DNA of 63,672 bases, the filler included, from Sphacelaria rigidula (Eukaryota): assembly GCA_964200075.2 (NCBI GenBank). It is 11 parts of 11 records of this genome, joined end to end, with 100 filler letters (N's around TTAATTAATTAA, not from the genome) between each part and the next. Parts side by side here need not be neighbours in the genome. Positions count along the whole stretch, not along the records: positions 57,976 to 63,672 come from CAXNAA020025172.1; 10 more parts are not named here. One strand, given 5' to 3'. Below, in pieces: positions 4,664 through 63,672 of the stretch. Under the pieces are notes generated by a model. The model did no database searches. It worked only from the letters and a program-made list of their open reading frames with translations, and was not told the DNA's origin. The stretch's first letter is position 1; each line of letters begins with the position of its first letter. Both the position numbers and the translations under genes were made by a program.

Positions 4664-4954
4664 CTTCAGGATATGGGATAGGCACGAGAGAAGTAAAGAA
4701 GGCCGTGAAGTCACGGTATAGTTTGTGCGAGCAAACAAAGTCTGTGTACTAATGCCCGAATGTTGTGCTCTGACTTATTGAACGACGCCCATGTTTTCGT
4801 GTGAAATGAAGCACGGGTGACAGCTTTCATCTCGAGATCTACACATGGAATAACGTTGTACAGAGGAACAAGAATGAGGGCAATCCTACCCCGCTACCCC
4901 CCTCCCCTCCAAAAAAACAAAAACCACAAGAATGAAAAAAACAAAAAAACTCAC

Positions 4955-5136
4955 CTCCTCCAACAACGCTTCGTTCTGACCGGAAGTCCTCTTTTTCACT
5001 CTCTTGACGGTGTACGTTTGACTTTGGGTCGATCCGTGGGGTGGTGCCTTCACCACCACATTAGGCATGGCTATCCAAAAGGTGATAATCCTTCCTTTTG
5101 CCGTCTGCTTGGTCAAGACATACATTCGTTCGAACT
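4955..5136 (-). CDS. CaMK-family kinase(-like), exon: subdomains I-III with degenerate Gly-loop
   Basis: gcag|AG..GAG|gtgagt; FERMYVLTKQTAKGRIITFWIAMP...YTVKRVKKR...EALLEE joins in frame to VRILRQ. Upstream exons not resolved. Confidence 0.75.
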
Positions 5137-5698
5137 CTGCACACACCACATCAAATATATGGGGCCAAAAAACACCGCACGGTGGGGCGAGGGCGGGATG
5201 GCGGGGTGGGAACGTCACGCACTAACGCGTAATGACTGGTTGCAAGGGTGCCGTTACTGCAGATCGAACGACAAGCTCAGCTTGCAAAATGAACGGCTGG
5301 GCAGGGTCTCTATCCCCATCCTCCCTTCCGCCGAAAAAATGGCAAGCTTGCGCTTTTGATGAAGCTGCTACTACTTTCTGGGTACCCGAACACGCCTATT
5401 ACTGGTGTTTCAGACTTCTCGACGGCGGATTCAAGTCCACTTGTCGGGGGTATGTCATCGGCCGTTGGATACAACAACGGGGGGTCCGATCGCAGGCAAA
5501 CACCAACTGAAGCTGTCTCGATCGCCCTTCCTCTGAAAGTTCTGTCTCGAAATAGATGCGTGATCAATGGTCAAAGGACTCAGGCAAGCAACAAATGAGT
5601 GCGCCCCGATTGCAGCGCCATATAAAGCTGTCTATCTCCCCCCACCCCCCCCCCCGGCGCCTCCCCCCGACCCGTGACGCCCCTGGGCAGGCAGGCAA

Positions 5699-5798
5699 NN
5701 NNNNNNNNNNNNNNNNNNNNNNNNNNNNNNNNNNNNNNNNNNTTAATTAATTAANNNNNNNNNNNNNNNNNNNNNNNNNNNNNNNNNNNNNNNNNNNN
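5699..5798. other. Artificial contig-joining spacer (first of ten)
   Basis: N44-TTAATTAATTAA-N44, with stops in all six frames. Also at 11497-11596, 17295-17394, 23093-23192, 28891-28990, 34688-34787, 40485-40584, 46282-46381, 52079-52178, 57876-57975. Contigs are 5698 or 5697 bp; 5x5698+6x5697+10x100=63672. Confidence 0.98.
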
Positions 5799-6227
5799 CG
5801 ATGTCAATGGTCTTATGACTATGGCATGCATGATAGTTCCGCCCCCCCCCCAAAAAAAAACAGCCCATAAGTGTCACGGAAGAAATGGTCATTCAGCGCC
5901 TGATGTTTGGGCTCAGGCTTCATGAATCACCTCATTTAGGCGACATTGGCGAGAACGAACCCAATTGTGGGAATTCCGAGCCGCTCATTGTGCTCGGCTC
6001 TCCCCATTTCGATTTACGTGAAGATTTTGCCTCCCCAAACCAGGCACGTTTTTGTTGGGAGCTATCGTAGAAGGCGTCGCTGCTTCCCGTCCACGTTCAT
6101 GTTCCTCTTGTGTTACTTTTACTTTTCACATGCAAGGTGCACGTTGCCGCCGTAGGATGGTGCACACTCGATATTGCTCTGTACGTTGAAGTATTTTATT
6201 GTGGAGACTTGTTTCTTCTGACCGCAG

Positions 6228-10283: not shown

Positions 10284-12000
10284 CAGTAGCGGTTGGCGTG
10301 GTGGTGAATCTAGTGACTGGTTGATTAATTGTCGCACTTCAGGCCTTTGGCTGCCAGGGCGAGCGATCTGGGTTTGTCATTTTTCATGTAACAATGATGC
10401 CGATTCAACAGATGAGCCGCCCTTGCGGTCAAAGCGGCAGCTTACCCGCTATGAATCCAGCCATGGTTACGAGAAGACAAATTAGACGTACCCAAGGTAA
10501 GTAAGCAGGAACATCAATAGCTGAATATATTTAGTCATGTTGTCACGGATTTTGTTGATATGATCTAGTTGTTCCCAGTGGCGGTTGTTATTTGCCCAGT
10601 AAGCGTGGTACGAAGTGTTTCCTGTTCTGAGGAGAAGCCCTGTGTAAAGCTAAATATTACTGATGTGAAGATCTCATCCCCACATCCTATTTTGGTCCCC
10701 CAAAACTGTTCAATAGTACTACATGTAATGAAGGCCAAGAAATTTCCGGGAAATTACCATGAAGAAAGTATGCCCAAACTAAGAAAATCCATCGCATGAC
10801 GCCGTTCATGTCAAGGTTCCATCACCCCAAAGGGTCGTGGATGATTTTAGCCGTCGACCATGGAATCTTGGTCAACAATACTTCCATGAATTTTATCGAG
10901 GCCAATGGACAACAGCGAGTCACCTCACTGATTGTTTCTTGCGTATTCGCCATGCACACGGTTTTCAAATGTGTTGCTCGGTATGCCGTGGCAACTCTCT
11001 TATTTTTTTCGAGCTGTCAACACGCACGTAGCGTAGGATCATACACAACGGGTGGCGTATCAATCGAGGTTACAGTAGATCCGAAATTGCATAGAATTTC
11101 CGCAACAATCAACCGCGGAATGCAAACAACAGCGTATTCGTGAGATGAAGAGTGACAAGCGGTCAGTTCGTGAATGAATCGTTTTGTTCCCGAAATGCCC
11201 CCCCACAAGACCCAATATGCATTCTGTAGTAGCTGGCCACTAAGGCCCTTGATATCCATGTGAGTAGGATATCGACGTGTAGCTGCAAGCACACGCAATT
11301 GATGAGGGCAAAGAAGAGCGCGCACGGAATAAAAAAATGGCTAAGTTGAAGCGAATGACCGAAGCCACCCTCAATCAGCGCTCGAACCTCAATATCACGA
11401 AAACGTTGTTGAAAGTATCGGTAACAAAAATAAAAGGGAAATATACAAAAAAGGGTACACCCTGGCGCTTTTGGAGCAAAAAAGGGTGGCGCATTTNNNN
11501 NNNNNNNNNNNNNNNNNNNNNNNNNNNNNNNNNNNNNNNNTTAATTAATTAANNNNNNNNNNNNNNNNNNNNNNNNNNNNNNNNNNNNNNNNNNNNAGGG
11601 ATGCGAGGTCAATGGTCTTATGACTATGGCATGCATGATCATGAGTGCACCCCCCGGAGGGCCGAAATTCATTTTATTTGTATTCTGTTTAAATATCTTC
11701 CCCTTGTTACCTGCCCTCTCAATTGGTGTGTTTACTGCACATTATCCCTCGAATACCTACTAGTTGGAAACACCTACATTCTGATTTGGTTGGCTTGGCT
11801 TCGCTTAACACTCGTGGGTAGAGACGACCCTCAACGAAAGCCGTCCGCAGCGACAACCTTGGACAGGAACAAAAAACAGCCACGACAACTTCCATCTGAG
11901 CGGTGCTACGGTACGGGTGCGCAAACACTTCCTGAGGCTCTTCACTCTGGGAGGCCCTCGATGACAAACATCTGGGCCCAATTGTGCAACCCCTACCCAG

Positions 12001-16439: not shown

Positions 16440-16960
16440 TTTCTTCATCAAGTTCATTTGAAAAAGTTCCACGATCGCACTTTTAAGAGGCTGAGTATTT
16501 CGTGAGAAAACACTACGAGCTAGGTCAGCCTAAAATAGACGTAAACTGTCGCAGTCATATCTTGCCGACGCAGACGAATTGGGCCGTGATCCGCGCATTA
16601 AAACAAATACATCCAAGGTGCAGATGCTCATCTACTCAACAGCCCGGCCAAATGCATTCTCCTTGATTGAATGCCGTGTCGAGTAGATCCCGTGACGTAC
16701 GGAGATATCTCGTACTAAAGTCTATGCGGAACCTCTTCACGGCTTTTCCAGCAGATGGCCCTGATCGTTTGGTGTGAAAATTTCTTGGGGCACGGGGAAA
16801 CAATCAATACCCTTACGTTCACTTAATTTGCTATCCATCGAGAGATATGGCGCACATAATATAAAAACAAAATCCAATATGTTGCGAGGAGAGGCACTGA
16901 ATGACTTGAGCATAATTTTAGCATCTCATTTTTGAGAGTTGTGCTTCGAGATCTGGTATG
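16440..16960. repeat. Old dispersed repeat, same family as 38040-38500
   Basis: Reverse-complement similarity, e.g. tacgagct.gg.cagcc, gacga.ttgggcc.tgatccgc, catct.ctcaaca, gagata.ggcgcacataa. Confidence 0.65.
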
Positions 16961-17394
16961 GAGATCGCAAGGGCACAAGGAAAAGCGTGCCGCGAGATAT
17001 TGATTTTTGTCTCATGGGCTAAAGACATTTCTATGAAAAGTGGACCTTACGCTTTATCCTCAACTCAAGAAATGCAAAAAAAAACATGCCTTCCAGAACG
17101 TTCATATTGTGTGTTGCCGTCCCATCTGTTCTGGGCGCCGGTCTACACCTTTCGGTATATGTGGGCGCACCAGCCGGGGTCACACAGGATGAAGGTCAAC
17201 ACAGGAGCTTTTTTTCATTTTTCGTTGTCTTTAGTGCCCCACCTTCTTTCTGCAGTGCTTGCCTTTCTTTTTTATCGCGAAAGGGGTGCAGCAGNNNNNN
17301 NNNNNNNNNNNNNNNNNNNNNNNNNNNNNNNNNNNNNNTTAATTAATTAANNNNNNNNNNNNNNNNNNNNNNNNNNNNNNNNNNNNNNNNNNNN

Positions 17395-21200: not shown

Positions 21201-23192
21201 GCGGCCTGCTTGATTGACCACTCCCCCGCTTCACGACTCGGCTTGACTCCAGGTTGAAAGGTTCACGGTGCGGACGAATCATCGCCGGTTCCAACCACCA
21301 AATCCATAATTGTTCAGGCCTGATTGCTCGAAAGAGAAAAAGATGGGTTGACCGCTGGTCAAAAAGGTCTCCACGCAATTTTTGCGCCAGTCTACGTGCC
21401 TGGGCTGCACGTACCTGGCTTGCAACGCTGAAAACGACGCCTGGGGATTGTTTCGTACAGTACAAATTAATTACACTACAATAAGGTAATTTCGACACGA
21501 ACCAATAATTCGTCTCGTCCTTGAACATGTTGATCGGCGCGTGTCTGATGTGGTGTACGCGCAGGTCGATGATGGGCTCGATGTATTACCATTCTACCGG
21601 CGCCCGAACGATGGGCGCGGGCATGCTATAAAGTACCCCCTGTATCACTTCCTGCTCCACGCACCTCGAAACACAGAGGCGGATGTTCGACCACCACAGA
21701 AGATGGGCGGCGCGGTACGAGAATATTGGACGCAGTACGCCGCTGATGCACAGTCAAGAGGGCAAGGGGGTGTATTGGATGCACAAAACAACACAATATT
21801 TCGATGACTGCGCGGGTGATGGCTAATGTATTATATGGTTTCTTGGGGGGGGGGGGGGGGGGGGGGCCCCTGCGGTGCAGCCCCTGATAGCCCGCCTGCC
21901 GTTGAATGTGCGACGCCTGCGATGTCCTTCGTATGTGGATTTGCGAGGTCACTGTAGTGTGCGGTTATGGAATGCCGCGTGGCTGGGAATAGTTTGCCAT
22001 TGACCAGCGAGATCTGCTTCATCGTTGAGTGGGTTCGAGATACACTTCTATTAAATGAGGTCATGACATCGAGAAAGGGGCCATTGGGGTGCGATAGAAC
22101 GTTTATTTCAGGTGAAGAGTTGTCTCCTTCCGCCTAGAACATTTTGATATTTTGTTCATCCCAGCGACCTCGGCGAAGAAGGGAAAGCAGCGCTTTTTTG
22201 GTTCTCGCCATCAAAACAGATGGATTTTACCGCAGGAAAAGGTGCTGAGGTCCTCGAGGAAGTTAGATATCTGACTCATTCAGTATCCCGGGGTGCGCGC
22301 GCGATATTACATCCCGAATTTGCAAATAGTGGATGCCAACACCGGCCTAGGTACCGGCCCGCCTCATATTGTGCCAAAAACATACCGGCGCCGGCTGTCA
22401 CTCAAATATTTCCGTGCGAATGTCGGCGGATGGGCTTCCGACGTTGGCATGGGGAACGCACAACGAGCAATGCTACGGTAGGGGTGCACTTTTTTCGCGA
22501 AATTATGTCTAGTTCAGGAGCTCCTAACGATTCTAGATGCACAAAAATATGGGTCAGGGCTTCCCCGTTCACATATTATTTATTGGGGATACCCCCAGCA
22601 CATTGGAGTAGTAATCCTGGCGCACTTTCACATATTTTTTCAGGTCGTGTTTTGCATAAGGTTAAAGGCTCCTAACAACTCTAACCTCAAAAACTATTTG
22701 TACACCCCACCGTAGGATCACTCCAACACCGAGGGAAAAAATGTTTCAGGTCGCGAAGACGCTTTTTGAGGATGATCTGCAAGGATCTCAAACGTGAATG
22801 ATCTTCCTCTGCGCCCGAAGTGAAATCGACCATAATCATACGGACCCTTGACCGTGTCCACTGCCGCGGGCGATATATTTTTTTTAATCTTCGGGTTTTT
22901 TTTTATTTGAATCGCGTCTTCTTCTTCCCTGCTTGCTCAGCAGCCAGCGGGCGCGAAAGGCCTATAAACGATCAATCGACTCGAAAAATGGCCATATATC
23001 GGCCCTTTTCTGTAACGCAGGGAAGAACCCTGGGAACCCCAAAGAAGAGCAAATTGTGAGAATTGAGGTTTAACTCTGAATTGAGGCTCAAGNNNNNNNN
23101 NNNNNNNNNNNNNNNNNNNNNNNNNNNNNNNNNNNNTTAATTAATTAANNNNNNNNNNNNNNNNNNNNNNNNNNNNNNNNNNNNNNNNNNNN

Positions 23193-23202
23193 AGTAATAG
23201 TA

Positions 23203-23267
<65 letters not shown>

Positions 23268-24599
23268 TATACACGATTTCCATCCATGAGCCTGTTCGAG
23301 GTGTACGTGAACCCATCCAGTCCATCCCCAGAGAGAGAAGGAAAAACATTTTTTCTCGGTGGTAGGACCTGAACGTCCTCGCGATACCTCCACATGTCGA
23401 AGAGCATCACCATTAATCTTGGTTTTTATCAGGGCACAATAGGGACATAATTTCTGCACCTCAATGATTCTTCGGGAACATGTTCTCAAGGGCTGTTTCC
23501 TTCCCCCGTGTAATTCCTCGAATAACAGTGGATCCTGGAAAATGGCGTCCATCTCAAAAATGAGATTCAAGTGGCATTTCTTTTTCGCAGGGATCGCGCG
23601 AAACACTTGCGACCAAGCGAAGCCATCCTCCCCCCCAAAAAGCCCGCAGCAGTTAAGCAGCTGTGGCTAGGTGCACCTAACGAATGCGGTGTACACGGGT
23701 GTCGATGACGGTAGCACCAGAGAGATAAGCAACGGCAGAGAGGAAGCTCCTCGCCCGTGTCCTTTGTGTGTGTCCTCGCTTGGCAATTACCAGCCTCTCG
23801 AGACACTTACATCATCACTGTTACCAGCATGTGTTCATTTTTCCATGTGCCAGAACACCGAGCTGCGGAGAGATTTCATCTCGTCTCTTCTTGCCTGTCG
23901 AGCTCACGAATGCGAAGGCCGATTTCTCTCTGCCTCTCCTTTTGGACAGGACGCGCCTCTGTGCGCTGAAAAACATGTCGTTGAAAAACAGGGAAATACT
24001 CCCGTCATCGCTACCACTGTTTTCGGGCACACGCATGCTAGCAGGGGCGGTGGTGCGGCAATAACAAATAGATTCAATTTGAACTTGGGGGGTCTTATTC
24101 ATCGTTGATTTTACCCACATCTGACTCTCTGGGAGCCCGACGAGAACAGCCTGCCACACGCCAGGTGAGGTGGGTGTATGAGAGATCAAACACTTGTAGA
24201 GACCTTTTTGGCATGCGAAGTGAATAAGATACCTATGGTGGTGACCTAACTGTTGCTAGCGTGGCGTATAGGAGTCCGTCTATGCTGCAATCTAGTGCAC
24301 ACGCTGGTCGCGTGAACACCTCGGTACAGTACGAGTAGCTTTCCAGAACTATTCCGATGTGAGGAGGTCATGCATTACAAGCTGGGACGAGAGTGCTCTA
24401 CGATCAACCACTTGTCGTTGCATTTGAGGCCCACGCCATCAACGGCCGAGAGCAAAGGTCTTGTGGCTTTCACGCAAGGTTGTCGGTAGTACGGCAGGCA
24501 AACCCGATCACAGCTAGCTTTCGTTGCTCTACCGTACTTACTCCCGACCGAAGTTCGCAACGGGTATGGAAGCTAAACAGTTGACTTTTCTTAACTACA
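23193..24599 (+). repeat. Left arm of contig-spanning inverted repeat (1407 bp), starts in (TAG)n
   Basis: Reverse complement of 27484-28890, about 17 substitutions counted by eye. Mirrored ORFs in the ORF track. Confidence 0.97.
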
Positions 24600-27483: not shown

Positions 27484-28815
27484 TGTAGTTAAGAAAAGTC
27501 AACTGTTTAGCTTCCATACCCGTTGCGAACTTCGGTCGGGAGTAAGTACGGTAGAGCAACGAAAGCTAGCTGTGATCGGGTTTGCCTGCCGTACTACCGA
27601 CAACCTTGCGTGAAAGCCACAAGACCTTTGCTCTCGGCCGTTGATGGCGTGGGCCTCAAATGCAACGACAAGTGGTTGATCGCAGAGCACTCTCGTCCCA
27701 GCTTGTAATGCATGACCTCCTCACATCGGAATAGTTCTGGAAAGCTACTCGTACTGTACCGAGGTGTTCACGCGACCAGCGTGTGCACTAGATTGCAGCA
27801 TAGACGGACTCCTATACGCCACGCTAGCAACAGTTAGGTCACCACCATAGGTATCTTATTCACTTCGCATGCCAAAAAGGTCTCTACAAGTGTTTGATCT
27901 CTCATACACCCACCTCACCTGGCGTGTGGCAGGCTGTTCTCGTCGGGCTCCCAGAGAGTCAGATGTGGGTAAAATCAACGATGAATAAGACCCCCCAAGT
28001 TCAAATTGAATCTATTTGTTATTGCCGCACCACCGCCCTTGCTGGCATGTGTGTGACAGAAAACAGTGGTAGCGATGACGGGAGTATTTCCCTGTTTTTC
28101 AACGACATGTTTTTCAGCGCACAGAGGCGCGTCCTGTCCAAAAGGAGAGGCAGAGAGAAATCGGCCTTCGCATTCGTGAGCTCGACAGGCAAGAAGAGAC
28201 GAGATGAAATCTCTCCGCAGCTCGGTGTTCTGGCACATGGAAAAATGGACACATGCTGGTAACATTGATGATGTCAGTCTCTCGAGAGTTTGGTAATCGC
28301 CGAGCGAGGACACACACAAAGGACACGGGCGAGGAGCTTCCTCTCTGTCGTTGCTTATCTCTCTGGTGATACCGTCATCGACACCCGTGTACACCGCATT
28401 CGTTAGGTGCACCTAGCCACAGCTGCTTAACTGCTGCGGGCTTTTTGGGGGGGAGGATGGCTTCGCTTGGTCGCAAGTGTTTCGCGCGATCCCTGCGAAA
28501 AAGAAATGCCACTTGAATCTCATTTTTGAGATGGACGCCATTTTCCAGGATCCACTGTTATTCGAGGAATTACACGGGGGAAGGAAACAGCCCTTGAGAA
28601 CATGTTCCCGAAGAAGCATTGAGGTGCAGAAATTATGTCCCTATTGTGCCCTGATAAAAACCAAGATTAATGGTGATGCTCTTCGACATGTGGAGGTATC
28701 GCGAGGACGTTCAGGTCCTACCACCGAGAAAAAATGTTTTTCCTTCTCTCTCTGGGGATGGACTGGATGGGTTCACGTACACCTCGAACAGGCTCATGGA
28801 TGGAAATCGTGTATA

Positions 28816-28880
<65 letters not shown>

Positions 28881-28890
28881 TACTATTACT
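27484..28890 (-). repeat. Right arm of contig-spanning inverted repeat (1407 bp), ends in (CTA)n
   Basis: Reverse complement of 23193-24599. Confidence 0.97.
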
Positions 28891-34564: not shown

Positions 34565-34899
34565 GTTTCCTTTCTTCGCCGAACACTTTCAACGATAAGC
34601 CCCCCCATAAAAGTGCATGGTTTTGGGAGGCAAAATCTTCACGTGAATCGAAATGGAATAAGCCGAGCACAACGAGAAGCTGGGAATNNNNNNNNNNNNN
34701 NNNNNNNNNNNNNNNNNNNNNNNNNNNNNNNTTAATTAATTAANNNNNNNNNNNNNNNNNNNNNNNNNNNNNNNNNNNNNNNNNNNNATGCCCTGGCGAA
34801 ACCCACACAAATTTTCAATACACAAAAACCAAGCGTGGGCCAGTGAGTGGCCTGCGAAATACTGTTCTGAATTTCTACCGATCCGATTCTTGAAAGGCG

Positions 34900-35165
34900 A
34901 ATGCGCCGGGCAATATTTAGAGTTGGACCCTGAAGTTTGGTATCGACAATGCACAGAGCATAATAAAAAATCGGGAAGAAGCACCCAAAGTATTTTTTTT
35001 GTTGTGAGTTAAGGGCAATAATCAGTTTTCAGGTTTCAGCAAAATGCCCTTAACTCACGAAGAAAAGAAGAAAAACTTCGGGTGCTTCTTCTCGATTTTT
35101 TATTATGCCTTATGCATTATCCATACCAAATTTGAGGGTCTAACTCCAAATATGGCCGGCGCATC
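34900..35165. repeat. Palindromic repeat with related inverted copy at ~37300-37700
   Basis: Arms ~34900-35020 and 35045-35165 (gcataataaaaaatcg.gaagaagcaccc / gggtgcttcttctcgattttttattatgc). Confidence 0.7.
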
Positions 35166-35476
35166 CGCCCGCAAACTTTCATGCAGCCTCTAGGCTGGCC
35201 CAGCTCGTACGCATACCACGGTATGGGATACCCCGGTAAATGCCGGGGGTACGCTTCGTACGGTACCTTACCTACGGTGTCTGTGCAATACATGGTGGGC
35301 TGCGTGACGCAAGATGATCGATACGAACACCGCCTTGCTGTACTAACTGACTGTTGTAGAAGTGACAGTTGTGCTTTTTCACTGCATGGTAGGTTGTACT
35401 TGACTGAAAGCACAGCACGGACAACAGTACACACAACAATACTGTAGTACTGTATTGTATGCATTGGCTGTAGTGA

Positions 35477-36689: not shown

Positions 36690-39600
36690 GAAGAATACGC
36701 ATGCAAACATACACTGTATGTATACGTTGTCTAACACCCCTCTCAGTTTTTACTACTTGGAAGCCACATCTCGGAACATTCAAAGAGAATTTCAGTATTT
36801 GGAAACGAGAACGCGATAGTTAGAAAATCAGTGTTATTCGTTTTTAACAACATGAGTATTTTTTTCCTAATTTTATTCAAAGGCCCAGGTTACATTCGAA
36901 ACGACCATGCTCCGCGGCGTGAAATATGCTGAGGTGAGAGGGGTACACGTCTTTGAAAGACAGGTAGTCACATCAGCACAGGAACCTGGCGATACAGACG
37001 CCGCTCATGACTGAGGCGCCCGGATGACAGGATGCATGTCACTGCGGAGGGATGGAGCGCGTAATACACGAGTTCTACGTTTCCAATCTAAATCAGGACA
37101 AAGTTGGCACAGGATGCTTCGAGCCGGTAGTACCGTACTGAACTGTACGATACGAACCACGCTCTGCAGGGCTGGAATACCCGCGATCCATCCGTGAAAA
37201 TTTCAAATGGTTCTCTGTCGCATTTTGAGAGCAAGTGACATGGTAAAAAAAATCCGCAAAAGTCGATTGGATGCGTGTACGAGGTATGCCAGCCGAGAAG
37301 CGAATTTGTAGTTTGCAGGCCCACTGTACGGCCAATATTGAAAGTTGGACGCTGAAATTCGGTATGGACAATGAATAGGGCATAATAAAAACAAAAACCA
37401 GTGGACACAACGTTTCTTTTGTTCATGAGTTGGGGGCATTTCACTGATACCTGAAAACTGATTATTGCCCTTAACTCATGGGGAAAAAAAAACCTGTGTG
37501 CACTGGTAGTAATTGTTTTGATTATGCCCTATTCATTGTCCATACCAGATTTCAGGGTCCAACTCTAAATGTTGGCCGTACAATAGGCGATTTAGTGACG
37601 GCGTCAGAATAAATTCGGAATAATATTTTGTAGGCCACTTACCGGCCCACGTTTGGTGTTTGTGTATTGAAACTTTGTGTGGACCGTGGCTAGGGCATAA
37701 GTGACGAAACAAAGTGGGTCAGGTTGATTTTTTTTCATTGTTCCACTGGTTAAGGACGATTTAGTATGGAAATCACCATTTTTTTACGAGAACGCCAGAA
37801 CCTCCCCCCCCCAAAAAACCTAAGGACCCATTTTTTTTATTCAGCATACCTCTGTGGTTCTTCGTCCTGAGTTTTGAGTTTCCAATTACAATTCTAATAA
37901 TTGAGATGAGGCCCAAAAGCAGTGTTCATTTCTCCTCAAAACTGCCCCAAGAACCCGAAAAATATGAAAAAGAAAACGAAAAAATTGGAAAAGCTGTGTT
38001 TTGAGTTGAATTATGCACTATAATAGCGGTTCTCCATACGAAATTTCATATCATAACTCTCAAAAACTGAGACGCGATATCCAGGTTTAATTAGTCTAGT
38101 GCATCTGCTCGTAATATAATGTTTTTAGTATGGAAACTTATGTGCGCCGTATCTCGAGATAGATTATGAATTAGGTGGAGGTGAGAGTACCTATCGTCTC
38201 CCCGTGCTCCAGGGAATGTCCACACCAAAATTCGTCGCCGTCCGCTGACTGAATCGATCGGGGGTTTCGTAAAGACATCTCCCTCACGTCTAGGAAGTAC
38301 TAGACATGGGGTTTACTTAACGAGAAAATATTGGCCCAAACTTGTTGAGCAGATGGGCACCTTCCCCTTGGTTGGATGATTGATACAATATGCGGATCAT
38401 GGCCCAACTCGTCCGTGTCGACGAGATATTGCTTTTGAGAGCTTAAATCCGTGTCTGGCTGGCCCAGCTCGTACGACAAAGCTCCAGATATCACGTGTGA
38501 CCAAAATCTACAAAAACTGCCAGTTGATTCTGACAACAAAAAAAAGTAATCACTCCCGCCGTGGTCAGTCTGTCGTGATGCTATACACACAAACCCTGGT
38601 GTCTGTAGGGCGATGTTGTCCCCTTCCCGAAGAGCTTCATAGCGGCCCACGGCAGAGTACATTCTTCTCTTCGACTCGGCTGTACGTACGGTCACGTCTT
38701 GCGTGAGACGGCGGATGAACCCCAGGGGCAGCAATCTCAAAGATATGATGAGGCCTGAATGGTGGTTATCTGTGTTACTGCGAGCGTCGACCGACAAGCG
38801 GACCGAATTAAGAGACTGTACTGGCAAGATATTCCGCAGACTACGTGCCGATTTCATTTCGTTCCCGCTTCAAATGTCGTTAGGAAGTGAAAAATGTTCC
38901 GAAATGAGTTCCAGTATCGTGCGTGATCATCCTTTCAACCCACGCGGCGCACAAAAAATTTTGTGGGTCGCCGATATTGTTGCGTCAACACCTACCTGCG
39001 GCCTTAACCTACTGTTAATACACATTGGTGAAGTTTCAGCATCATCAGTCGCCAGGTGAGCTGTGTTTGCCCGCCTAATCTCCAACACTACCACCTCCAT
39101 ATTGTCGAACAGGAATAACACCGCAAAATAATGGCAGGGGCGGCCCTGTCACGTGAAAAGAACATACTGAGCACGTTGATGTACCTATGTGCACATTAGT
39201 ATGAGGGCCATTATCATCGAAACGGGTGAATCGTTTTTCTCAGAATATTTTTTTCCCAAGACGGCCGGTGATTGGTCGCAGTCACAGATACCATCCTCTT
39301 GAAACTGTAAGAAGTAACCCCCAATCATTTGCGATGTTGTCAGCCCGAAGAACCCATTGCTCCCGCAAACCGAAAAACACGCAGCTCGAGCCGTAGATGC
39401 TTACCAGCCGAGCACGTTGTGCGACACCTTGCGCAATTTTGTTCGGAAGTCAATGAGAAACGATGATTTGTGGGAGACGCGCGCACAAAACACGCGCACG
39501 ATCAATCAGAAAGGGCAAGTTTCCTCATGTAAAATGGCAAGCGCGCTGCCGCCCTCCCTCCGACCTTGAACTGGCTTCCGGTCATATACTGTCGATGTAG

Positions 39601-44727: not shown

Positions 44728-46499
44728 GATGAGCGTACGCGGACTTTGTGCTGAAAGAGGAAGGTGTAGTATATCTGGTCTGCGGCTCTAATCAAAGGAG
44801 CGTAACATCAGGTGATGCTACGTGCAGAAGCCGGAGCTTGATCCGAAAAATACTGGATAATGAAGCATAATAGCGCCTGAGGGGACCGCAGGACCTGGTT
44901 TACTTGAGTAATTTATTGAAGCAAATTGAGGTTTGTAACAACTGTGCCCTGGTCTGATTAATACAACTTTATTCAAGTTGTGGCGGTAATAGCTAGCACT
45001 GGATTGTGCGCAGAACAGGCGTATGTCGCCGAGACAAGCGAAGACCCGAGTGTCTGTAGTGGCGCTGGTACGTGGAAGAACAACTTATACGTGTTCCGGA
45101 TGTAGCGCCACGGGTAGACTATAACTAAATGATCCCAGCGCAAGTTGAGGAACGACTGGCGGTGTGCAAATGAAAAGGACCAAAGATATAAATATATTTT
45201 CTCAGATGCGCACGAAACCTGTGCAGCGCAAGGCAGCACAAAGGCTTTTACACAGCTTCGGTTGTAGACCGCGAACTCGGACTGCGTAGTGCAGAGCGAA
45301 GGCTTGTTTTCCAACGAAGTTGAGACAACGTATATATGTGGAACAAAGGTGATGTGATGTACAACAGGGGCAACGCTGGGAGCGGGTGCCGAAAACTTTG
45401 TAGTGCACAAGCAAGGGGCACCGATTTCGAGTCCTGTCTGTTCAAATGAGCACGTAACGGAGGTTGAATTGTTTCAACCAGTAGTATTTCAACGAAACCG
45501 TCTTGGAACAATAAAGTTGTTAGTTCGAGAAGTTTTCAAAGGAGAAAAAACTCACAGTACGTTAAGCTGTGTAGTGCTACTTACCACGGTGATGTATCGC
45601 GTTGCCTTACAGCTGTGCGAAGTACACAAAAGGATTACAACAACAAAGTAGCCACAAGCAACGAAGCCAAAGCTACAACAACAACGAAGACGCTCGAGCA
45701 ACGAAGGTAAAGTACCGGAACAATCCAAAGTTCGGTGCAGACGTCCGTTATCATACTGTGTAAACACGGTCTGAACTTACTTCAGTAATTTCGTGAAGGA
45801 AAGAGACAACAATCGCGTACAATCGATACTGAAAAAAAAGAGCAGTAGCGTGCCAGCTTGGCAGGAGTTCGGGTTAGGAACAGCGGCTGGCTATGAAGAA
45901 TAGTGCGCCTTTGTGCACTGGTGTTCTGCACAAACCTGTAGTAGAAGACTTTTTTTGCAGAAAGAAAGGGGCCACAAGGCCAAATACACGAGCCAACAAT
46001 GTCGCGCCGGGCTGTTGAATCAAGAAAAGATTCAAAAGTCGTGCAGGCGGGACTGATATCGTTGGGACTTGTGCAGGTAATGTCAAATTGACAGCACGGC
46101 AAGAACAGCAAGCAGTGCGCGTTGACCCCACGTTGACCACAAAAGATGTGGCGTCGAACGCTACAGCAATTAACAGCCGATTTCAAATTTTGGGGTTCAA
46201 CACTAAAATGAGGCTGAAGTCGCATTTCTCTCTTGCAGGGAAGATACGAAAGAGTAACACAGAGCGAAAGTATCTTCCCCCNNNNNNNNNNNNNNNNNNN
46301 NNNNNNNNNNNNNNNNNNNNNNNNNTTAATTAATTAANNNNNNNNNNNNNNNNNNNNNNNNNNNNNNNNNNNNNNNNNNNNTTGTCGTACTCATTTGTTG
46401 CTTGCCTTAGTCATTTGACCATTGACCACGCATCCCTTTCGAGACGGAGCACCGAACAAGCAGAGGGGGTGTATCAGTAATAATAGATACGCCATGACG

Positions 46500-48955: not shown

Positions 48956-49544
48956 TACAGTGTCATTGCCAACCGACACTAACCCAGGGTTGGGGACGGG
49001 GGGGGGGGGAGGGGCGTACTCATTTGTTGCTTGCTTTGGTCATTTGACCACTGACCACGCATCCCTTTCGAGACGGAGCATATTTTTTGGGGGGGGGGGG
49101 GGGGGGATGGTTGATCAGAATACGGACTATATTGGTCCCCAGGAAGGGAAAATGGTTGAAAGTGTGACAAGAAAATACATATATACACAAGAGTTTCGGC
49201 GGCTATCGCCGCCAGGCTCGTGTATCGACAGGCAAGATACATGAGCAACGGTGCTGATACTCATGTCCGTTGCGTAATGGTAAAGGTCACAGTTTGGCAA
49301 AGCCGTAGTACCAGCTAGCTTATGAGCTGAGCACGTTGTTCGAGGCCTTGCGCAAATCTTTTCAGAATTCCATGAGAGAATGATTTGGGCGAGACGCGCG
49401 TCCACCACACAAAAAAAAGGGTCAGCACCTGTAACATATATATAAAAATGTGTATATATATATACAAGGTTCCCCTTCGGGAGGTTGGTACAGGCCTCCC
49501 GGGGGTGACGCAAGTCGAAAATATGAAACATACTTTGTGCGAGT

Positions 49545-54934: not shown

Positions 54935-55389
54935 AACATGATACTCACTGCGAAAGCTAGGCAACGAGGTCACCATTTTTTCGCGCAATTGCGTTTCTTT
55001 TGTCTGTAACCATGGCGGTGGTCGAGCTAGATCATGTTGTGCGGCGTGGGAGAACGTCAACTCCGCACAAGGGGGGTGATCGTACTACGTAGTGTTTGAA
55101 TAGTGAGACACCCATGAGGCAGTACATAGGCCGTGGCTGTCTCTGGAAGTGGCGATACCACAAAATGAGGCAACTCACTGTAGGCTGTCATCCGAATGCA
55201 AGATGATCAGTAGGCTTCGGGCCGAACAATCTTTAAGCAGGATGCAGCTCACCCTCCATGCGACTCGCCCAACACACCACGGCGCTTGGCGCTTGGTGAT
55301 TAAGTGCGAGCCTCGTCCGGCTTTGCAGGGATGCGAGATCGATGGTCTCATGGCTACGGCATGCATGATCATGAGTACGCCCGCCCCCC
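54935..55389 (+). mobile_element. Long F2 oligo(C)-tailed retroposon copy in Rab1 intron
   Basis: Similar to 48480-48955; ends gggatgcgagatcgatggtctcatggctacggcatgcatgatcatgagtacgcccgcccccc. Confidence 0.75.
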
Positions 55390-55558: not shown

Positions 55559-56405
55559 GTGAGCAACACCTTTGGTCCAAGGGAAATATGTATGAGTGTA
55601 CTCGTACATTGGACGTGTGCAGGGGTGATTCAACCCTCAACTGCTATCAGTGATGATGTTTGTGCAGTAAGGCGGTATTCGGATCACCCCCTCCCCCTTC
55701 CCCCTCCCACAAGTCGCCATGAACCTTCTCGTGTGTTTTTGTATCTTCGTTATATCTATAACCTTCGTACAAAGAACATGCACTGACTCGAATGGGACCA
55801 TGATTACGAATTGAACCCGTGCGGGTCTCGTTTTGGCGAACCCGAAGTATTGCGGGTCCGCCTTTTTGTTGGACTCATGAAGTCCCAGCCCCAAAGACAT
55901 GCATACCGTGAACCCTCGTGCGCGCCGGGGGGGGGGGGAAGTGAGTCCACACTAGCTGTAGTCACAGTGCCAAGGTTACAATACTTGACGTCCAAGAAAA
56001 TAGTGAGCCTGTATAGGTAAAATGGGATTGTCAACATAGACTGCTTTGAGGCCACAGGGTGAACGTTCCTGTTTCATATTAATTGCCTATCGCAGTGATC
56101 GGTGGACAAGGCGGGAGCGGCGGGGGCAACACTTGCTGATCCTCGAAATCACGCACTCATCCCCAGACGGGAGTTATTGTGTGTGCGTGGAGGATACTCA
56201 TGATGTTGCATTCCGTAGTCATGTCCGTTGGCCTCGTATCCCTACAAAGCCAAGACGGAGCACGCCCGATTTGCACCGGACCGCCGGAGAGGCGGGGGGG
56301 GGGGGGGGGGACACAACACCACCAACACAACATACGACACACCACACCAGACANNNNNNNNNNACACGAACAAGACCGGGGGCGGCGCCCCGTGAAGGCG
56401 CCGGG

Positions 56406-56437
<32 letters not shown>

Positions 56438-58329
56438 GTAATATAAGGAAAAATGTACTCCTACACCATCGCTCAGTTCAACGTGTGTAAGAAGAGTCGG
56501 GATAAATGCCCGTATACCCTGGAAGTACCGCCCGAGACTAGTTCATTTTGTTTTCGCCAAAATTCGAAATTTCGACATTGTGACGATTCTTACCGTCCGT
56601 GACTAGTACATGTTGTTTCCCCCAAAGTTCGAAATTTCAAGATCTCAGCGATTCTTTTTCCACCGCATACTCTCGAGGGAGTCTGATATTTTCCACGATT
56701 CCAGCGAGATGTTCGACAAAAAAAAACCCTCGTCAGCGCATGGCAGCTTCACACTTTCACTTCACGGCAGCCGTCAGCTATTTCGCACACGGCATGGTTC
56801 TCACCTGTCTACTGCATAATATGCTGAAAGCTGCATGTAGACTGGTTGAATATTCTTCGCGACGGTACCATCCCTGCAGTCCTGTACACTTGAGAACGAT
56901 ACCGCCGGGGATGATGTGAAACCAACGGTATATTGACCATGTTGTCGCCACAGCGTATGTATTGCCGGCCTGTGTTTTTTAGTTGACTGTTAAGGCCGCC
57001 ACGGGTTGCCCTCACAAATTCAGGTGTTTGTAAGAATTCCATTTTCTTCACCTCTACCTGATGCGAAGTGCTCACAGTGCGCAGCAACGTGTTGAACACT
57101 ATACCTGTTTATGCCACGAGATTCCGGGTAAATTGCTCACTGCTCCTCGGCATTCTGCTTTGGTGCTCGAATCACAGCTGCACTCGTACAGTTTACGGCA
57201 AAGCGAACGGCACTAATGGGGGGATCCCGCGCCCTCCCGGTTCGGTAGAAATCAGTGGCAAGAAGCCTATACTTTACCTAGTATACTTTTTGTCGATTGC
57301 ATCTGTTGACCATATATTGTCCAGGCCGTGACTTGTTTTGAACTGCTGTCTCTGTCGAGTTTGTGATCGTCCATCTAGCCGGCAGTATACATTGCCCGTA
57401 TTAGAAAGCATCAACCACGCTTGAGTGGGACCTCCCCTACTGTGTGTCGATATGATGGAAGATCAGACTCTTCAGCACACCTGAACCAAGATTTGGTGTA
57501 TCTTCGGAACATCGTAGAGTCCTGAAAATGATGTTCGAGTCGGGCCGCTTTATGCACCGACACGTAGTCCGAAATGGCTTGCTGGTCGCGATTCATTTAG
57601 TGTGTGAGCACAGTCAGGCCAGGGGCATGAACTGAGTTCGAGTTGCCTCTTGAGGGCTCTATATCTGTACCCTCGAAATCTCTCTCAGCCGATACATTGC
57701 ACCCGGTGCGGGGCATATCAGGGTCGTCCGTGATTGACTTGCCATCACTATAGCTGTAGCCTTTCTCATCGTGGATGAATCCTGTAGTAACAAAAACACT
57801 TTTTTTTGGGGGGGGGGGGGGCGGTCCGTTGTACGGTTTTCTGCTTTTTTTGTTTTTTCTTACCAACCACACTTGNNNNNNNNNNNNNNNNNNNNNNNNN
57901 NNNNNNNNNNNNNNNNNNNTTAATTAATTAANNNNNNNNNNNNNNNNNNNNNNNNNNNNNNNNNNNNNNNNNNNNCCTCCTAACGTCCTTATCCATCTGA
58001 TCAGGGGGGTACCTACCCATCCAAAATGAGTCCCCCCCCCCCCCACCCGTCGCCCAGAATAAAGTTTTCGGGAATCGGGGGCGGTGAATAACTTATTCCA
58101 GTCTGTGAGGCCCCTTGACCCGAGACATGACAACACTCAAACATTCGCTGAAGAATAAAATAAGAAACAGAAAAAAGGTAGAACAGAACAAGAGAGTGGC
58201 CTACGAAGAAAAAAAAAAGAATGACCGGCCTCTGCCCCACGGGTTCAGTGGGAAAGGTCTTGCGCAGAACCACACTCTCATACCCAGTCGTAGGAAACAA
58301 AATGCCATGGGAAAAGATTGCGGCACAAT

Positions 58330-58566
58330 TATTATGGCCGCATGATTTGGAGTATTGACTAAACTCCCGTACCGCATCGACTGTCGTGCAACAAAGTCGC
58401 CCAAGCGTACTCTTTTTCCTGCTCGCGTTCTCGTGCTCCTAACGACCCAACGACGGGAATCAGATGTTCCTTAGCAAAAAGCCAAACCAGGCGCACCCGG
58501 CGGGGATCGAACCCGCGGTTTTCCCGCACTAATGTCGTCAGTTGGGCCGTTAGACCACCGGGGCGC
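58330..58566 (-). mobile_element. tRNA-derived SINE (best-preserved head)
   Basis: Head 58566-58491: A-box TGGTCTAACGG, perfect T-arm GCGGG-TTCGATC-CCCGC, acceptor-like pairing, no canonical anticodon arm. Body similar to 3380-3490. Confidence 0.7.
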
Positions 58567-58606
58567 AACGGCTGCGCTGCCTATATTTCCCCCTCCTGTA
58601 TGTGTA

Positions 58607-59073
58607 GAAAAATTTGAAACCGCAATATCGGGTGGGAGACCTGGACCTGCCGGAAAGAAGAAGGAGATTCACCAGTAGTCGAGGAGGAGGACGTAAATGC
58701 ACAGAAGTGCCCCTGTGGCAAAGCAATAGAGGGCAGAGGTCATAGAGTGGCAAAATGTGAGTTATACAAGGAGGAACGGGACGTGCTAGAGGGGGAAATG
58801 CGGGACGTGAACGAAGGTGGCATGAAATCGTTTGATACATTAGACAGTAGGGAGAAAACCTCGGCTATACTAGGAGATAGATGGTGGTCACAGACGGTGA
58901 ATTAGGATGGAGATGAGATATGTTCAAGGTTTTTGGGTAGTGTATCGAAGAAACGTATTGAGCACCTAAATGTTGGAGGTGTCTCTGTTAGGAGTAGGAA
59001 CGGTGCTCCGTCTCGAAACGGATGCGTGGTCGATGGTCAAACGACTAAGACAAGCAACAAATGAGCGCCCCCC
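58607..59073 (+). mobile_element. 5'-truncated LINE (ORF2 C-terminus with zinc knuckle), oligo(C) tail, 18-bp TSD
   Basis: LKPQYRVGDLDLPERRRRF/fs/EEEDVNAQKCPCGKAIEGRGHRVAKCELYKEER...LGDRWW...GCVVDGQTTKTSNK*; TSD CCCCCTCCTGTATGTGTA at 58589-58606 and 59074-59091. Confidence 0.88.
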
Positions 59074-62000
59074 CCCCCTCCTGTATGTGTATCGTGAAAT
59101 CATCTCCGTGCTTGTACATTATCCCCCTGTACAGCGTTCGAAATATTAATTTATCGTTACCCTGACGTTATTAGTAGGTTTGTTGCTGTGGTCAGAGGCT
59201 TTCAGAAAATCGAAACACTCCCGTTGGCGAATTTCAGGGATCTTTCCAAAATCCTCCAAAATGCGAAATGTGGAGGGATTTACTTTTTTTCTCTGTTTCC
59301 CTCGTTTTTTTAACACCAACTCTATCGCCGGAAAATCCTGCATTATTCGGAAAGTCTTTTGACCGTTCATTGCAGCTTCAACAAAGAACTATCCGCGATG
59401 TTGGGGGGTGACGGAGCACGTGGGGAATTGTTCAAGACTCTGCCCGCACCACTAGAATTGGTCGAGTTGAGGCTACCTACGTGGTGACGGTAGGGACAGT
59501 AAACTCGTGGGTGTAGACGGTGAGCCACGGGGACGTAGTGGATGTGTGAGTGTGTGCGAGGGCTGGGGTAAGGACGAGAGCAGAGAAGTGGAATGAACTG
59601 ATGGCGGGGACAGGTGAGGTGTGTCCCTCATCCAACATTGGAGTATGACGACACTCCGGTAACGAGAATGAACGATGACCCGAGGTCACAGTACGTCCCG
59701 TCCACGAGAAACATTCGAAGAAACATGCGGGGGGCAGATAGCTGTGCTCCGCATGTCTTACGGAAACTCTCGCCGAAGAAAAGTGAAGAAAACGGAGAGG
59801 TGAAACAGACAATGCAGAGACGAAACGTGTGTTCCAATCATGTTTGTGGGCAGAGCGGATGGGGCGACAAGAACGCGATTGTACCATTTTCATGTGAACA
59901 AGATCGTTTTTCAGGGTCAGTCGGACAATATTCAAACTTGTGACGGAACAAAGCACGAAGACGGTGACGACCTGCTGGTTTGTTGAAATGTTTGAATGTG
60001 GGATTCAGATGTTTGAATATGGGAGTGCACTTGTGATGGTAGTAACCTCTGATCCTGTGGGGTGTTGAGTGTTTCAAGCAACTTTACCTTTTTACACAAA
60101 AGTGGTAGATGTGCACTCGGTGCTTCGGCCGAGGAAAACAGAGGCGTTGGGTAACCTACACGTGCGTTTTGTCCATCCGTTTAAAAATCAGGCTCGTTTA
60201 GCATGTAATCATTGGTTGTATGCTTCTTCACCCTTCCGGGCCTTCGCGGTGTACATTTCAGATGCTACCATCCATGCTATCACCTCGACACAAGTGGGCA
60301 CGCGTCAAGGGTAATGTCGAGTAGTGACACAAATCATTCCGTTATGTTCGTCTTCATAGAGTATGCAGGTTTCGCAGCTGCAGTTTCGTCAGAGCGAGTC
60401 CTGTATTGTCTTTCTGTAGCTGCGGGTGACGGTATCTCTGAGGAACTCACTCGCGCCGACACCTAGACCAGAAGAAAGCACTACGCGTCCCCGCTGGACC
60501 AAAACATGATGCCTCGCCGTGTATTTGGAATAAGAGAACGCCATTTATTTATTCACCACGTGGAGCCACACAAACACAAGTACAGGGTACAGATATTCGA
60601 TAAGTACTCATACTGCCACTGAGTGACCGTCTCCTGATACTACAGGGTTCTCAGGTAGCTGGCAACTGTTGCCCTTTCTGGCGATGCAGAATTTGCGGGT
60701 CACCTGATGTATGATTTTTGGTAGTCACCTCCATCCAGGTTCTGGTTTTCGCGGTGCATGTGGCCACTGCTGTTCAGGCTATGTTTCAAAACAGAAATGA
60801 GCAGCATGCAACATAACGGCAAGATATAGTGCACCATGTTATTCTAGTCCACCAACAGCGCACACGTGTGTTTAATCCGAAGGTTTTGATGTGTACTAGT
60901 GTCACCCATACACGATGTCTCGGACTGTATAATAGTATCGCGGAGGTTGGCAGAATAATCAACACAGTACCGTGCAGTCGATACGCTACATCTGCACTCT
61001 ATACTACGGTACAAAACAATACATGGAAAAAAAAATCGCCCGGTTGCTGCTCCCTTGATCCTGTTTTACAAATGATGAACGATGCTACACAACAATATTA
61101 AACATACGTACAGTACCACACCGTGCTTGATGACTATTCCACGAATTGTGTGTTCAGTTCCATAGCTTGCAGCAGCCCCTCCTTTTGCAGTACATGTACG
61201 GTTCTATGCTGATTATATATACTCCGTGCGGTGAAATCGGTTGTACTGTAATCCTCCCAGGAGGTGTCTGATCGTATCTACCTACCAAGCATGAGTCTCA
61301 AATATCCGGAGCCATACTCGTGATCCTCGTAACACAATGTTCGTGCTCATAAAGTTTCGACTCCAAACTTTAGCGCTTGAGAAAGCGTTATCCTCCGTCA
61401 AAGCTTCGGTACCAACGTACGACAAGCTCGTAGCCAACGCGGCATGAGCAGCAGGGTTTGTAGCGGAGTGAAAAATCCTGTTGTTCAACGACGTACTACT
61501 GTAGCACGGTACGGTGCACAGATTTGCTTGAAGAATACTTATCGTTGTCCGTGCAATCCCACGTTCGCTTCAAGCATCGGCCATCGATCTCGTAGCGAAT
61601 ACGGGACAAATCAGAAGCTACTGAGAGTCGAAGGATACGTTAAATCGCTGTTGACGTCGTGGTCAGATTGGCACCGGTTTGGCAGCGTGAAGTTGAGTGC
61701 AACCTGAGAAAGTTGGTAGGGCACCCAGGCATATGTGAAAAAAAATCACGTTGTGCGCTTTGTATTCCTAGCTAACACTGAAGAACTCTCTCCGCAACAA
61801 AGCTGACTTCTATGTGGGAATATTGGTGCACAAGCAAGCGCCGAGATCGCAAGGAGCTCGCCCCTCAGTGAGCTCCTTGGCAGATCTCCACCCGTTGAGT
61901 GATTTTCTCTTGGGCCTAGCGCTCAAATATTGAAAAACAATCGCCAATTCCAGGCAGACAGGCAGACGGGCAGGCTGACAAACAGACAAGATAGGCGGCG

Positions 62001-62722
62001 ACGTTTGATCCACCTCCCTGGTGAAAGATGCGTACACCCTTGATTTCGTCATGACCCGTTAAGAATGGTACACGTCGCTCCACTCGGGTTTCGTCCTCAC
62101 AAGCCGAGCAAGGGGGAGCTGCGCGGGTGCGTCATCAAAATAGTCCATGGATAGCACACTCTAGAACTGCGTGGCCCTAAGCACACCCCAAACCCAAAGT
62201 CAAACCTTGCGTAGATCGAGAATCCTCGGGCAGGGGGACTTAAGAGGATCCCTTGGGTAAAGTGTGCGGGGGGCGGTTACCCTGGGCGAACTGTGTGTTA
62301 CGACAGCCTGGCGACGCCGATTGAAACAAGTCATACCGTGTAAGCTGGCGAGCACTCCGGACTGTCGGTTCCCGCAGATCCGAAAACCGGTGTCAACACT
62401 AACATAATTGTTTTTCGAACGACGACGACGACCTAGGGTGGGAATGTCGGATCTTGAACCGATATAAAAAGAAGCCGGACCCCATCGAGGAACATGCCGC
62501 CGCTGGTATGGTCAGATCCGTGCTCACAACACTCGTGCGCTCTAATCGGCGCGCACACCATGGCAAAAGGGGTGCGAGGGTTGGTGTCGGTGTTAGGGTT
62601 CGTATCGGTCGTGCTCGACCCATGAGGTCTCTGCAGCTCATCAAGCTGAAGTCGCGGCATGCTGCTTCGAGCAAGCGCTTGATGATTTTCACGTGTGCGC
62701 ACGCACATGCCCTCCCGACCAG

Positions 62723-62848
62723 GTTGTGTTTCGCGGCGAAACTGGTGCTGGCGGCGGTAGAGGGGCGAGACGCCGAGAGTGCCGTCGCCATGGCTGTCGT
62801 GAGGGTCGAAGGCGGCTTTGGCAACCCGCTCGCGCATCCATTCTACAG
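62723..62848 (+). CDS. Two-pore-channel (TPC)-like cation channel, N-terminal exon
   Basis: ccag|G..AG|gtgaga, 126 nt; LCFAAKLVLAAVEGRDAES...PLAHPFYR resembles the TPC pre-S1 helix (AAxxIxxAxxxR). Confidence 0.6.
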
Positions 62849-63071
62849 GTGAGACGGGCAGAAAGTACCAAATTCGCATTGTCGTCGGCACATGAGGGGG
62901 GGGGGCACGTTGAGCTACGGAGCACTTTCGGACTAGTTGAGGTTACGTTGGTGTTCTGCACTCAGGAACGTGAACGGCATCCGACAAGTACCTGGAAATA
63001 TGGTCCGTTTTCATCACGTCGCACGTTTTCAAAGACTTCTGGTCGATGTCTGTCTCATGTGCAATTTCTAG

Positions 63072-63242
63072 GCACTGGCTAGTCTGCGTCATCCTTGGCC
63101 ACCTCGCTCTGGGGTTTTGGGAGGGGGGCAATTCGCCGTTTCCGCTGTCCTTGCCTGTTTTGGCGGCGGAGGCTTTCATCTTCCTCTGCTACACGACAGA
63201 CATGGTGCTGAACTTTTGGACGTTCGGCATAGCGCAGTACAG
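63072..63242 (+). CDS. TPC-like cation channel, S1-S2 exon
   Basis: ttctag|G..AG|gtaaga, 171 nt, same phase; HWLVCVILGHLALGFWEG...LAAEAFIFLCYTTDMVLNFWTFGIAQY has the S1 LxFxE and S2 E-x9-D pattern of voltage-sensor domains. Confidence 0.65.
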
Positions 63243-63672
63243 GTAAGAGGGCGAGAGTATGCGGTGCCATGCTCAGGCTCTTCAGAATAGGGTGGTCGCG
63301 TCGGACGGCTCAAGAAACGAGATCGTGCAGTGTCCAAGAAATTGACTTTTGTCGTCAAATTGACACAGCGGGGAGTTTCCACAAACTATCATCCAGCAAC
63401 ATGCCCTACAGTCTTTTTACGTTGTCCTCTGTGCATGCCGTGTATTTTGACTGGTTTGTTGGACACCATCATGTCGTTTTTTGAGCCCTTCATCGCGATC
63501 GCCCTACAATAGTATGCCACGTATGTGCGACGTTTTGTTGGACGTGAAATTGCAATAGTGTATGTCGCTCTAGCTCTCGGTGCTGAAGGCACATGGAACA
63601 CGAAAATGTGTATTGATGCCGGCAGAACCCCCCCCCCCCCCCCCCCCCCCCCCCCAACGATACCACACCACC

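Follow-up and report, generated by a model that had tools for sequence, protein, structure and literature searches.

The DNA analysed here, which we refer to as the window, is a stretch of 63,672 nucleotides from the brown alga Sphacelaria rigidula (GenBank assembly GCA_964200075.2), and its last piece (57976-63672, record CAXNAA020025172.1) holds the 3' end of a long interspersed nuclear element (LINE) bounded by an exact target site duplication (TSD). The window is composed of 11 pieces of ca. 5.7 kb each, joined by spacers of the form N44-TTAATTAATTAA-N44 (5699-5798, 11497-11596, and so on up to 57876-57975), and does not represent a single locus. Hence, the other LINE copies named in an earlier, sequence-only reading of the window stem from different places, and several of them are cut by the ends of pieces. 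Five of the pieces begin or end within a LINE 3' end (positions 1, 5799, 11597, 40484 and 46386), as would be expected if contigs break in this repeat. The insertion in the last piece comprises the following features:

58589-58606, + strand: upstream copy of the TSD, CCCCC followed by TCCTGTATGTGTA (exact-repeat search)
58607-59067, + strand: body of the 5'-truncated LINE, with the last ca. 460 nt of its open reading frame (ORF) and 3 nt past the stop (homology to the external loci L001-L003, see below)
58618-59064, + strand: remnant of the ORF C-terminus, 148 codons ending ...GQTTKTSNK plus TGA (frame and homology)
58708-58758, + strand: zinc-knuckle-like motif CxCx8Hx4C, CPCGKAIEGRGHRVAKC (conserved in the related proteins P0153, P0159, P0151, P0001 and P0160)
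59004-59067, + strand: conserved 3' module, TGCTCCGTCTCGAAA...AAATGAG (comparison of window copies)
59068-59078, + strand: C11 oligo(C) tail, of which at least 6 C come from the element and 5 C, at 59074-59078, are common to the TSD
59074-59091, + strand: downstream copy of the TSD (exact-repeat search)

There are exactly two occurrences of the 18-nt sequence CCCCCTCCTGTATGTGTA in the window, one at each end of the insertion, and no further one appeared when up to two mismatches were allowed; the chance expectation for such a pair is 0, and none of 100 shuffles contained two matches. The upstream copy is preceded by T (...TATATTT), so the site held exactly five C before the insertion, while the downstream copy is preceded by six extra C that complete the C11 run. 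Since the element gave at least six C and the target had five C where the tail abuts, the length of the TSD is 13-18 bp. Homology to full-length relatives begins directly after the upstream repeat (58607/58608) and extends up to the C-run, with 80-85% identity to the 3' ends of L001-L003. Within it, the ORF remnant shows a frameshift with respect to the relatives near 58608-58700 and one in-frame TAG (58903-58905), is otherwise open, and ends in a TGA (59062-59064) that is separated from the C-run by 3 nt (GCG). The sequence-only reading proved accurate on the perfect 18-bp TSD starting with CCCCC, on the truncated LINE 3' end with a C-terminal knuckle, on the stop codon lying beside the C-run with almost no 3' untranslated region (UTR), and on the merging of that run with the TSD, which involves the last five of its 11 C. 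Together, 5' truncation to ca. 470 nt of an element of more than 5 kb, a simple 3' tail and a TSD make up the signature of a LINE insertion.

Contigs of four public runs were matched against a 1.1-kb stretch around the insertion, and both junctions were present in each run. Summed contig depth was 27-67 in the flanks versus 10^5-10^6 within the element, which places the insertion in unique sequence. Between 15,645 and 31,308 contig pieces per run matched the stretch; the summed depth within the element is not a copy number, and the family is clearly very abundant.

Two other sequences lie close to the insertion. At 58026-58044, ca. 550 nt upstream, AAAATGAGT is followed by C13, and this may be a minimal stub of a LINE 3' end or a chance match. 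A tRNA-like stretch lies 20 nt away from the site of insertion, at 58490-58570 (- strand). Its T arm is good (GGTTCGATCC), a T-run follows immediately downstream, and the stretch may be a pseudogene or the head of a short interspersed nuclear element (SINE). ARAGORN did not call a tRNA gene here and produced no more than a forced pseudo-model whose 'intron' measures 74 nt, and the only Rfam match was sub-threshold and unrelated; we make no claim of tRNA-gene targeting.

The 148-residue remnant, with X at the internal stop, retrieved 821 matches at E <= 0.001 in a library-wide HMMER search. Among the 150 matches listed, all but one were shorter than 240 residues, the exception being P0108 (598 aa), which aligned over its first 71 residues only. 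When the search was limited to longer proteins, it retrieved P0153, of 1360 aa, with domains PF03372 and PF14529 (APE-type endonuclease) and PF00078 (reverse transcriptase, RT), as well as a protein from Sphacelaria rigidula. The RT region of P0153, used in turn as a query, matched proteins from Ectocarpus sp., and the Ectocarpus protein P0160 is collinear up to the extreme C-terminus, including the knuckle, with 54% identity over 963 aa. Likewise, scans of metagenome and genome contigs yielded three external loci (2 + 1; L001-L003), all of them repeat-sized contigs that are full-length or nearly so. L001, a contig of 5110 nt, contains a single frame of 1426 codons from stop to stop (712-4992) and no second long sense ORF, and the ORF of 1425 codons within it encodes Exo_endo_phos (E 6.7e-13, residues 234-460) and RVT_1 (E 1.1e-30) domains; the ORF of L002 extends to the start of its contig. 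Thus, both L001 and P0153 carry a non-LTR-type RT with an APE-like endonuclease N-terminal to it, and the best match of the RT in the PDB is human L1 ORF2p (8uw3, E 6.6e-21), whereas the truncated copy in the window lacks these domains. A Pfam scan of 13 long ORFs from the window detected no RT or endonuclease domain, and no full-length LINE copy is present in the window. No TSD was found in the L001 contig, a search of the whole metagenome-assembled genome behind L003 returned only the L003 contig, and a scan of viral contigs gave 0 matches to the element. A further candidate from a second viral-contig scan (L005) was discarded as a chance match within an unrelated coding region.

We recognised 13 LINE 3' ends in the window, six of the same type as the autonomous element (A) and seven of a diverged type (B). 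Directly after the conserved end, 11 of these 13 copies have four or more C in a row; the tail of B1 is CCC only, and A5 continues with ACAA before a piece end cuts it. Tail lengths in the window vary from C4 to C17. Full-length relatives end in ...ATGAGTACG(C)8-13: the three external loci all reach ...AACAAATGAGTACG and continue with C10 (L001, terminus ...AAATGAGTACG), C8 (L002) and C13 (L003). In each of the four public runs, 62-79 contig ends behind position 59065 show the consensus TACG followed by 14-24 C, and where a mutated stop is read through in predicted proteins, their sequence goes on as ...SNKYAPPPP or ...SNKCVPRPRP. The stop codon and the C tract are 3 nt apart in the window copy and 5 nt apart in the relatives, so that the element practically lacks a 3' UTR. 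The oligo(C) tail is, therefore, a property of the LINE family and not of a single copy, and its being made of C instead of A excludes an origin by normal polyadenylation.

The last ca. 65-75 nt of the element are nearly invariant between copies and assemblies, to the point that A5 has 100% identity with both L002 and L003 along 69 nt. In the consensus fold, a small hairpin of this 3' module (TGGTC-loop-GACTA, -4.0 kcal/mol) is conserved except for its loop, which varies; the fold is suggestive only and shows no compensatory changes. Four of the A copies are short (ca. 75 nt), and were identified by homology to the LINE 3' end:

2191-2265, + strand: short A copy
5541-5607, + strand: short A copy
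46454-46386, - strand: short A copy
49080-48998, - strand: short A copy (A6)

All four start within 6 nt of a single position of the element (L001 4929-4935, equivalent to window 59004). Additionally, contigs in two runs link the tail, after 5-23 letters, to position 59003-59005 of another unit. The shared start of the short copies and these joints indicate that the ca. 75-nt 3' unit is a discrete and often tandem entity. The fixed boundary near 59004 might be caused by a site where the RT stops strongly, by the end of an RNA, by template jumping from one C tract to another, or by insertions that repeatedly hit earlier tails.

The B copies have only the last ca. 55 nt and the C-rich tail in common with the autonomous family, and comprise two long and five other members:

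54936-55389, + strand: long B copy
48953-48483, - strand: long B copy (B7)
2884-3002, - strand: B copy
4612-4662, + strand: B copy (B1)
5799-5851, + strand: B copy
11597-11655, + strand: B copy
40484-40425, - strand: B copy

The two long copies (ca. 460-490 bp) show no match to the LINE protein (ORF2) and are ca. 70% identical to each other, and the B copies are old. The B family is probably a non-autonomous partner of the LINE, like RTEX-N1 and RTEX-N2 of Ectocarpus.

A curated table of transposable elements from Ectocarpus (PMC12477816, Supplementary Material 3) describes RTEX-1_Ec32 as 'single EN-RT ORF; (C)n 3'', where EN stands for endonuclease, RTEX-2_Ec32 as having '(C)n termini/TSD', and the TSDs of all the Ectocarpus RTE-X families as 'C-rich'. 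The same publication gives lengths of 5867 bp for RTEX-1a and 5582 bp for RTEX-2, indicates that the last 60-100 bp of the non-autonomous RTEX-N1 and RTEX-N2 are in common with RTE-X, annotates RTEX-N1 with the remark that it 'can be present in tandem' and, in its main text, ranks RTE-X as the most abundant LINE group in Ectocarpus. An RTEX-1 element is also listed in the Saccharina genome paper. At the level of description, then, (C)n 3' ends and C-rich TSDs are already recorded for the RTE-X LINEs of Ectocarpus and the idea is not new. The accessible main text of PMC12477816 contains no occurrence of 'C-rich' or 'homopolymer' and gives no mechanism, and our full-text literature search on poly(C)- or oligo(C)-tailed LINEs and on RTE-X tails retrieved no paper discussing a priming mechanism for oligo(C) tails; within its results, the feature is mentioned solely in the supplementary table of PMC12477816.

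Judging from these table descriptions, the Sphacelaria element resembles RTEX-1_Ec32 and RTEX-2_Ec32 in its brown-alga host, single EN-RT ORF (on a contig of 5110 nt in L001, against ca. 5.5-5.9 kb), (C)n 3' end, C-rich TSD and high copy number, and also in having non-autonomous partners that carry the common 3' end and can be tandem. It differs in belonging to another species and a diverged lineage; P0160 may correspond to RTEX-1 or RTEX-2. The B copies parallel the described RTEX-N1 and RTEX-N2 in the same way, through the 3' terminus that they have in common with the autonomous family. The element most likely belongs to the RTE-X lineage, as suggested by its single ORF, size, (C)n end and Ectocarpus homologue.

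Human L1 inserts by target-primed reverse transcription (TPRT), in which the poly(A) tail of the RNA pairs with the T-run of a nicked TTTT/A site. Our element is like human L1 in its APE-type endonuclease and RT, in its 5' truncation, and in a variable TSD of ca. 13-18 bp whose first bases are those of the tail homopolymer. However, it does not have the poly(A) tail and separate ORF1 of the L1 clade: its tails are oligo(C), a single long sense ORF occupies L001, and there is no 3' UTR. Also in contrast to L1, the presence of a conserved 3' coding module in the non-autonomous elements suggests that recognition of the 3' end would be stringent and not relaxed. Stringent 3'-end recognition is known from LINEs of the CR1/L2 type, which end in short repeats that can pair with the target. 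Tails of this kind occur in Ectocarpus as well, where RTE-1_Ec32 and RTE-2_Ec32 end in (CAA)n and CRE-1_Ec32 in (CA)n (PMC12477816, Supplementary Material 3). The family described here is like them in having a templated simple-repeat tail other than poly(A) and a 3' end that is common to SINE-like partners; its repeat, however, is made up of one nucleotide, C, so that the tail merges with C-run targets just as poly(A) does with A-runs.

The sequence-only reading further listed C-runs near other copies, which we located at 2181-2185, 4583-4592, 4596-4603 and 49089-49106; a run on the minus strand lies at 46465-46469, and not at 46464-46468 as given there. It was also right that the copy near 4616 (B1) has a degenerate duplication, CCCT(C)TTCAG. 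The 5' junction could be assessed in eight of the 13 copies, because A1, B2, B3 and B6 are cut by piece ends and the boundary of B5 is unclear; the 5' boundaries of B4 and B7 are approximate and were set from their mutual homology. A run of at least five C occurs within 30 nt upstream of five of the eight junctions (A2, A4, A5, A6 and B1), compared with a frequency of 0.029 for random positions (binomial tail ca. 1e-6). The proposal that C-runs precede the 5' junctions held for these five copies, but not for B4 and B7, nor for A3, where the upstream sequence is only a C-rich stretch. A C-rich TSD is evident in one clean case, that starting with C5, and its generality is weakly tested.

Several results weigh against the view that these LINEs insert by TPRT at C-runs, or qualify it. 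Exact upstream repeats of at least 8 nt accompany only one of 11 motif-anchored 3' ends in the window, and a scan for TSDs at the 139 window runs of at least five C gave two matches, one of them a low-complexity C-run. TSDs of at least 8 exact nt were sought for the other window copies, by looking within each piece for an upstream match to the sequence behind the tail, and none was found, which leaves just one clean TSD in the window. There is no C-run within 30 nt of the approximate 5' ends of B4 and B7, and, although the sequence upstream of A2, A3 and A6 is C-rich, its non-C part is not repeated past the tails. Some of the upstream C-runs may also be tails of older insertions and not naive targets, since the tail of A6 lies ca. 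45 nt upstream of B7. Among the joints listed for the four runs, no contig connects 58606 to 59092, as would an empty site, and this is no evidence either way. The RTE-X assignment, in turn, derives from shared features and the Ectocarpus homologue, and not from a phylogeny against labelled references. With these points taken into account, we still consider it probable that 58607-59078 represents the dead, 5'-truncated remains of a brown-alga LINE of APE type with a single ORF, a very high copy number and an oligo(C) end, inserted by TPRT and most likely of the RTE-X type.

We propose the following mechanism for this insertion. TPRT would have taken place at ...TATATTT/CCCCCTCCTGTATGTGTA/TCGTG.... 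If all five C belong to the TSD, the bottom strand would have been nicked where the complementary G5 run ends; this run could then anneal to the 3' terminal oligo(C) of the RNA and prime cDNA synthesis; reverse transcription would have halted after ca. 470 nt, and the top strand would have been cut 18 nt downstream. Under the same condition, the geometry of the clean insertion would be that of L1 with C:G replacing A:T. With virtually no 3' UTR available, the signal recognised by the RT would have to lie within the last ca. 60-75 coding nt plus the C tract. Annealing of the C tail to a G-run during TPRT is plausible, and the GC mirror image of L1 priming suggested by the sequence-only reading gains from the C5 target at the point where the tail abuts and from the family-wide oligo(C) tail, and is held back by the single clean TSD. 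A broader version, which we put forward tentatively and regard as rather doubtful, is that the oligo(C) tract and the ca. 75 nt of ORF in front of it form a self-sufficient retrotransposition module, to which an endonuclease and an RT adapted to G/C homopolymers would belong: the endonuclease would nick the end of a G-run, the C tract would pair with it, 75-nt copying would stop or jump near 59004, and landing in tails or template jumping would build tandems.

The five C upstream of the insertion might, alternatively, be there by chance, the true TSD being the 13-bp TCCTGTATGTGTA and all 11 C coming from the element, with no preference for G-runs and no need for pairing. Such a coincidence would fit with the existence of a single clean TSD, with the richness of this genome in C/G homopolymers (those 139 runs of at least five in 63 kb) and with the lack of nearby C-runs at B4 and B7. 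We find it unlikely, however, because at least five C within 30 nt are rare upstream of random positions, and rarer still directly abutting a given one, because five of the eight junctions do have such a run, and because, in the independent curated annotation of Ectocarpus, 'C-rich' is the term given to the TSDs of RTE-X families with (C)n tails (PMC12477816). A second possibility concerns the tail, which could be made at the target if the RT or another polymerase extended the nicked bottom strand with untemplated G before it engaged a template ending in ...CGTACTCAT, in which case the C-run would be a by-product of initiation and would vary in length on that account. Untemplated nucleotide addition by retroelement RTs is established, tail length is very variable (in the window, in L001-L003 and at the contig ends alike), and neither a 3' UTR nor a recognisable polyadenylation signal is present in the element. 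Nevertheless, the C5 already present at the junction of the clean target is predicted by pairing and not required by untemplated addition; read-through transcripts of a master copy would include the C tract, because genomic copies carry it; and the same end and tail in the non-autonomous B copies suggest that the C tract is part of what is recognised. This explanation thus seems to us about as improbable as chance.

New copies could also land by preference in or next to C-tails left by older ones, or at G/C homopolymers that are fragile whatever the endonuclease; the association with C-runs would then result from accumulation at old tails and not from endonuclease specificity. Tail-to-head pairs do exist in the window (A6 followed by B7, 49080-48483, and C10-TCG-C8 in front of B1, 4583-4612), contigs in two of the public runs join a tail to 59003-59005 of another unit, and Ectocarpus RTEX-N1 'can be present in tandem' (PMC12477816). 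The clean insertion, though, lies in unique sequence, as seen from the depth of its flanks, and its C5 is not preceded by a recognisable element end; moreover, targeting of this kind would be a special case of pairing between tail and target and not an alternative to it. We deem it very unlikely as a separate explanation.

Pairing between tail and target during TPRT is best documented for the poly(A)-tailed L1. If a very successful LINE indeed combines an oligo(C) end with C-run targets, the pairing step would be generic and independent of polyadenylation, and, should the 75-nt module act as outlined above, it would represent a natural case of TPRT with a C:G instead of an A:T priming homopolymer. 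This raises the question of whether the C tract is kept on the RNA by read-through transcription, slippage or untemplated addition. In practice, many of the long C/G homopolymers found in assemblies of brown algae, and many of their short repeats of 75 bp, probably represent tails and 3' stubs of this LINE family, and such stubs and tails break short-read contigs. The value of our results lies in confirming the features recorded for Ectocarpus in another brown alga and in one unusually clean insertion, whose C5 target merges into the tail, and not in a discovery.

Pure G or C homopolymers of 14-30 nt with no adjoining LINE end also occur in the window, at 21845-21866, 56294-56310, 56407-56436, 57808-57821 and 63628-63655. 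No common motif was found in front of these five runs, which may have arisen by expansion of targets or as the tails of elements that we did not recognise.

The window contains other repeats as well. Two arms of 1.4 kb (23193-24599 and 27484-28890) form an inverted repeat with 98.8% identity that bounds one whole piece, and might have arisen artificially through fold-back during assembly or be a genuine palindromic element. Dispersed repeats unrelated to the LINE, with 67-73% identity from piece to piece, pair 515-997 with 38609-39103, 16514-16964 with 38031-38473, and 34803-35210 with 37277-37682.

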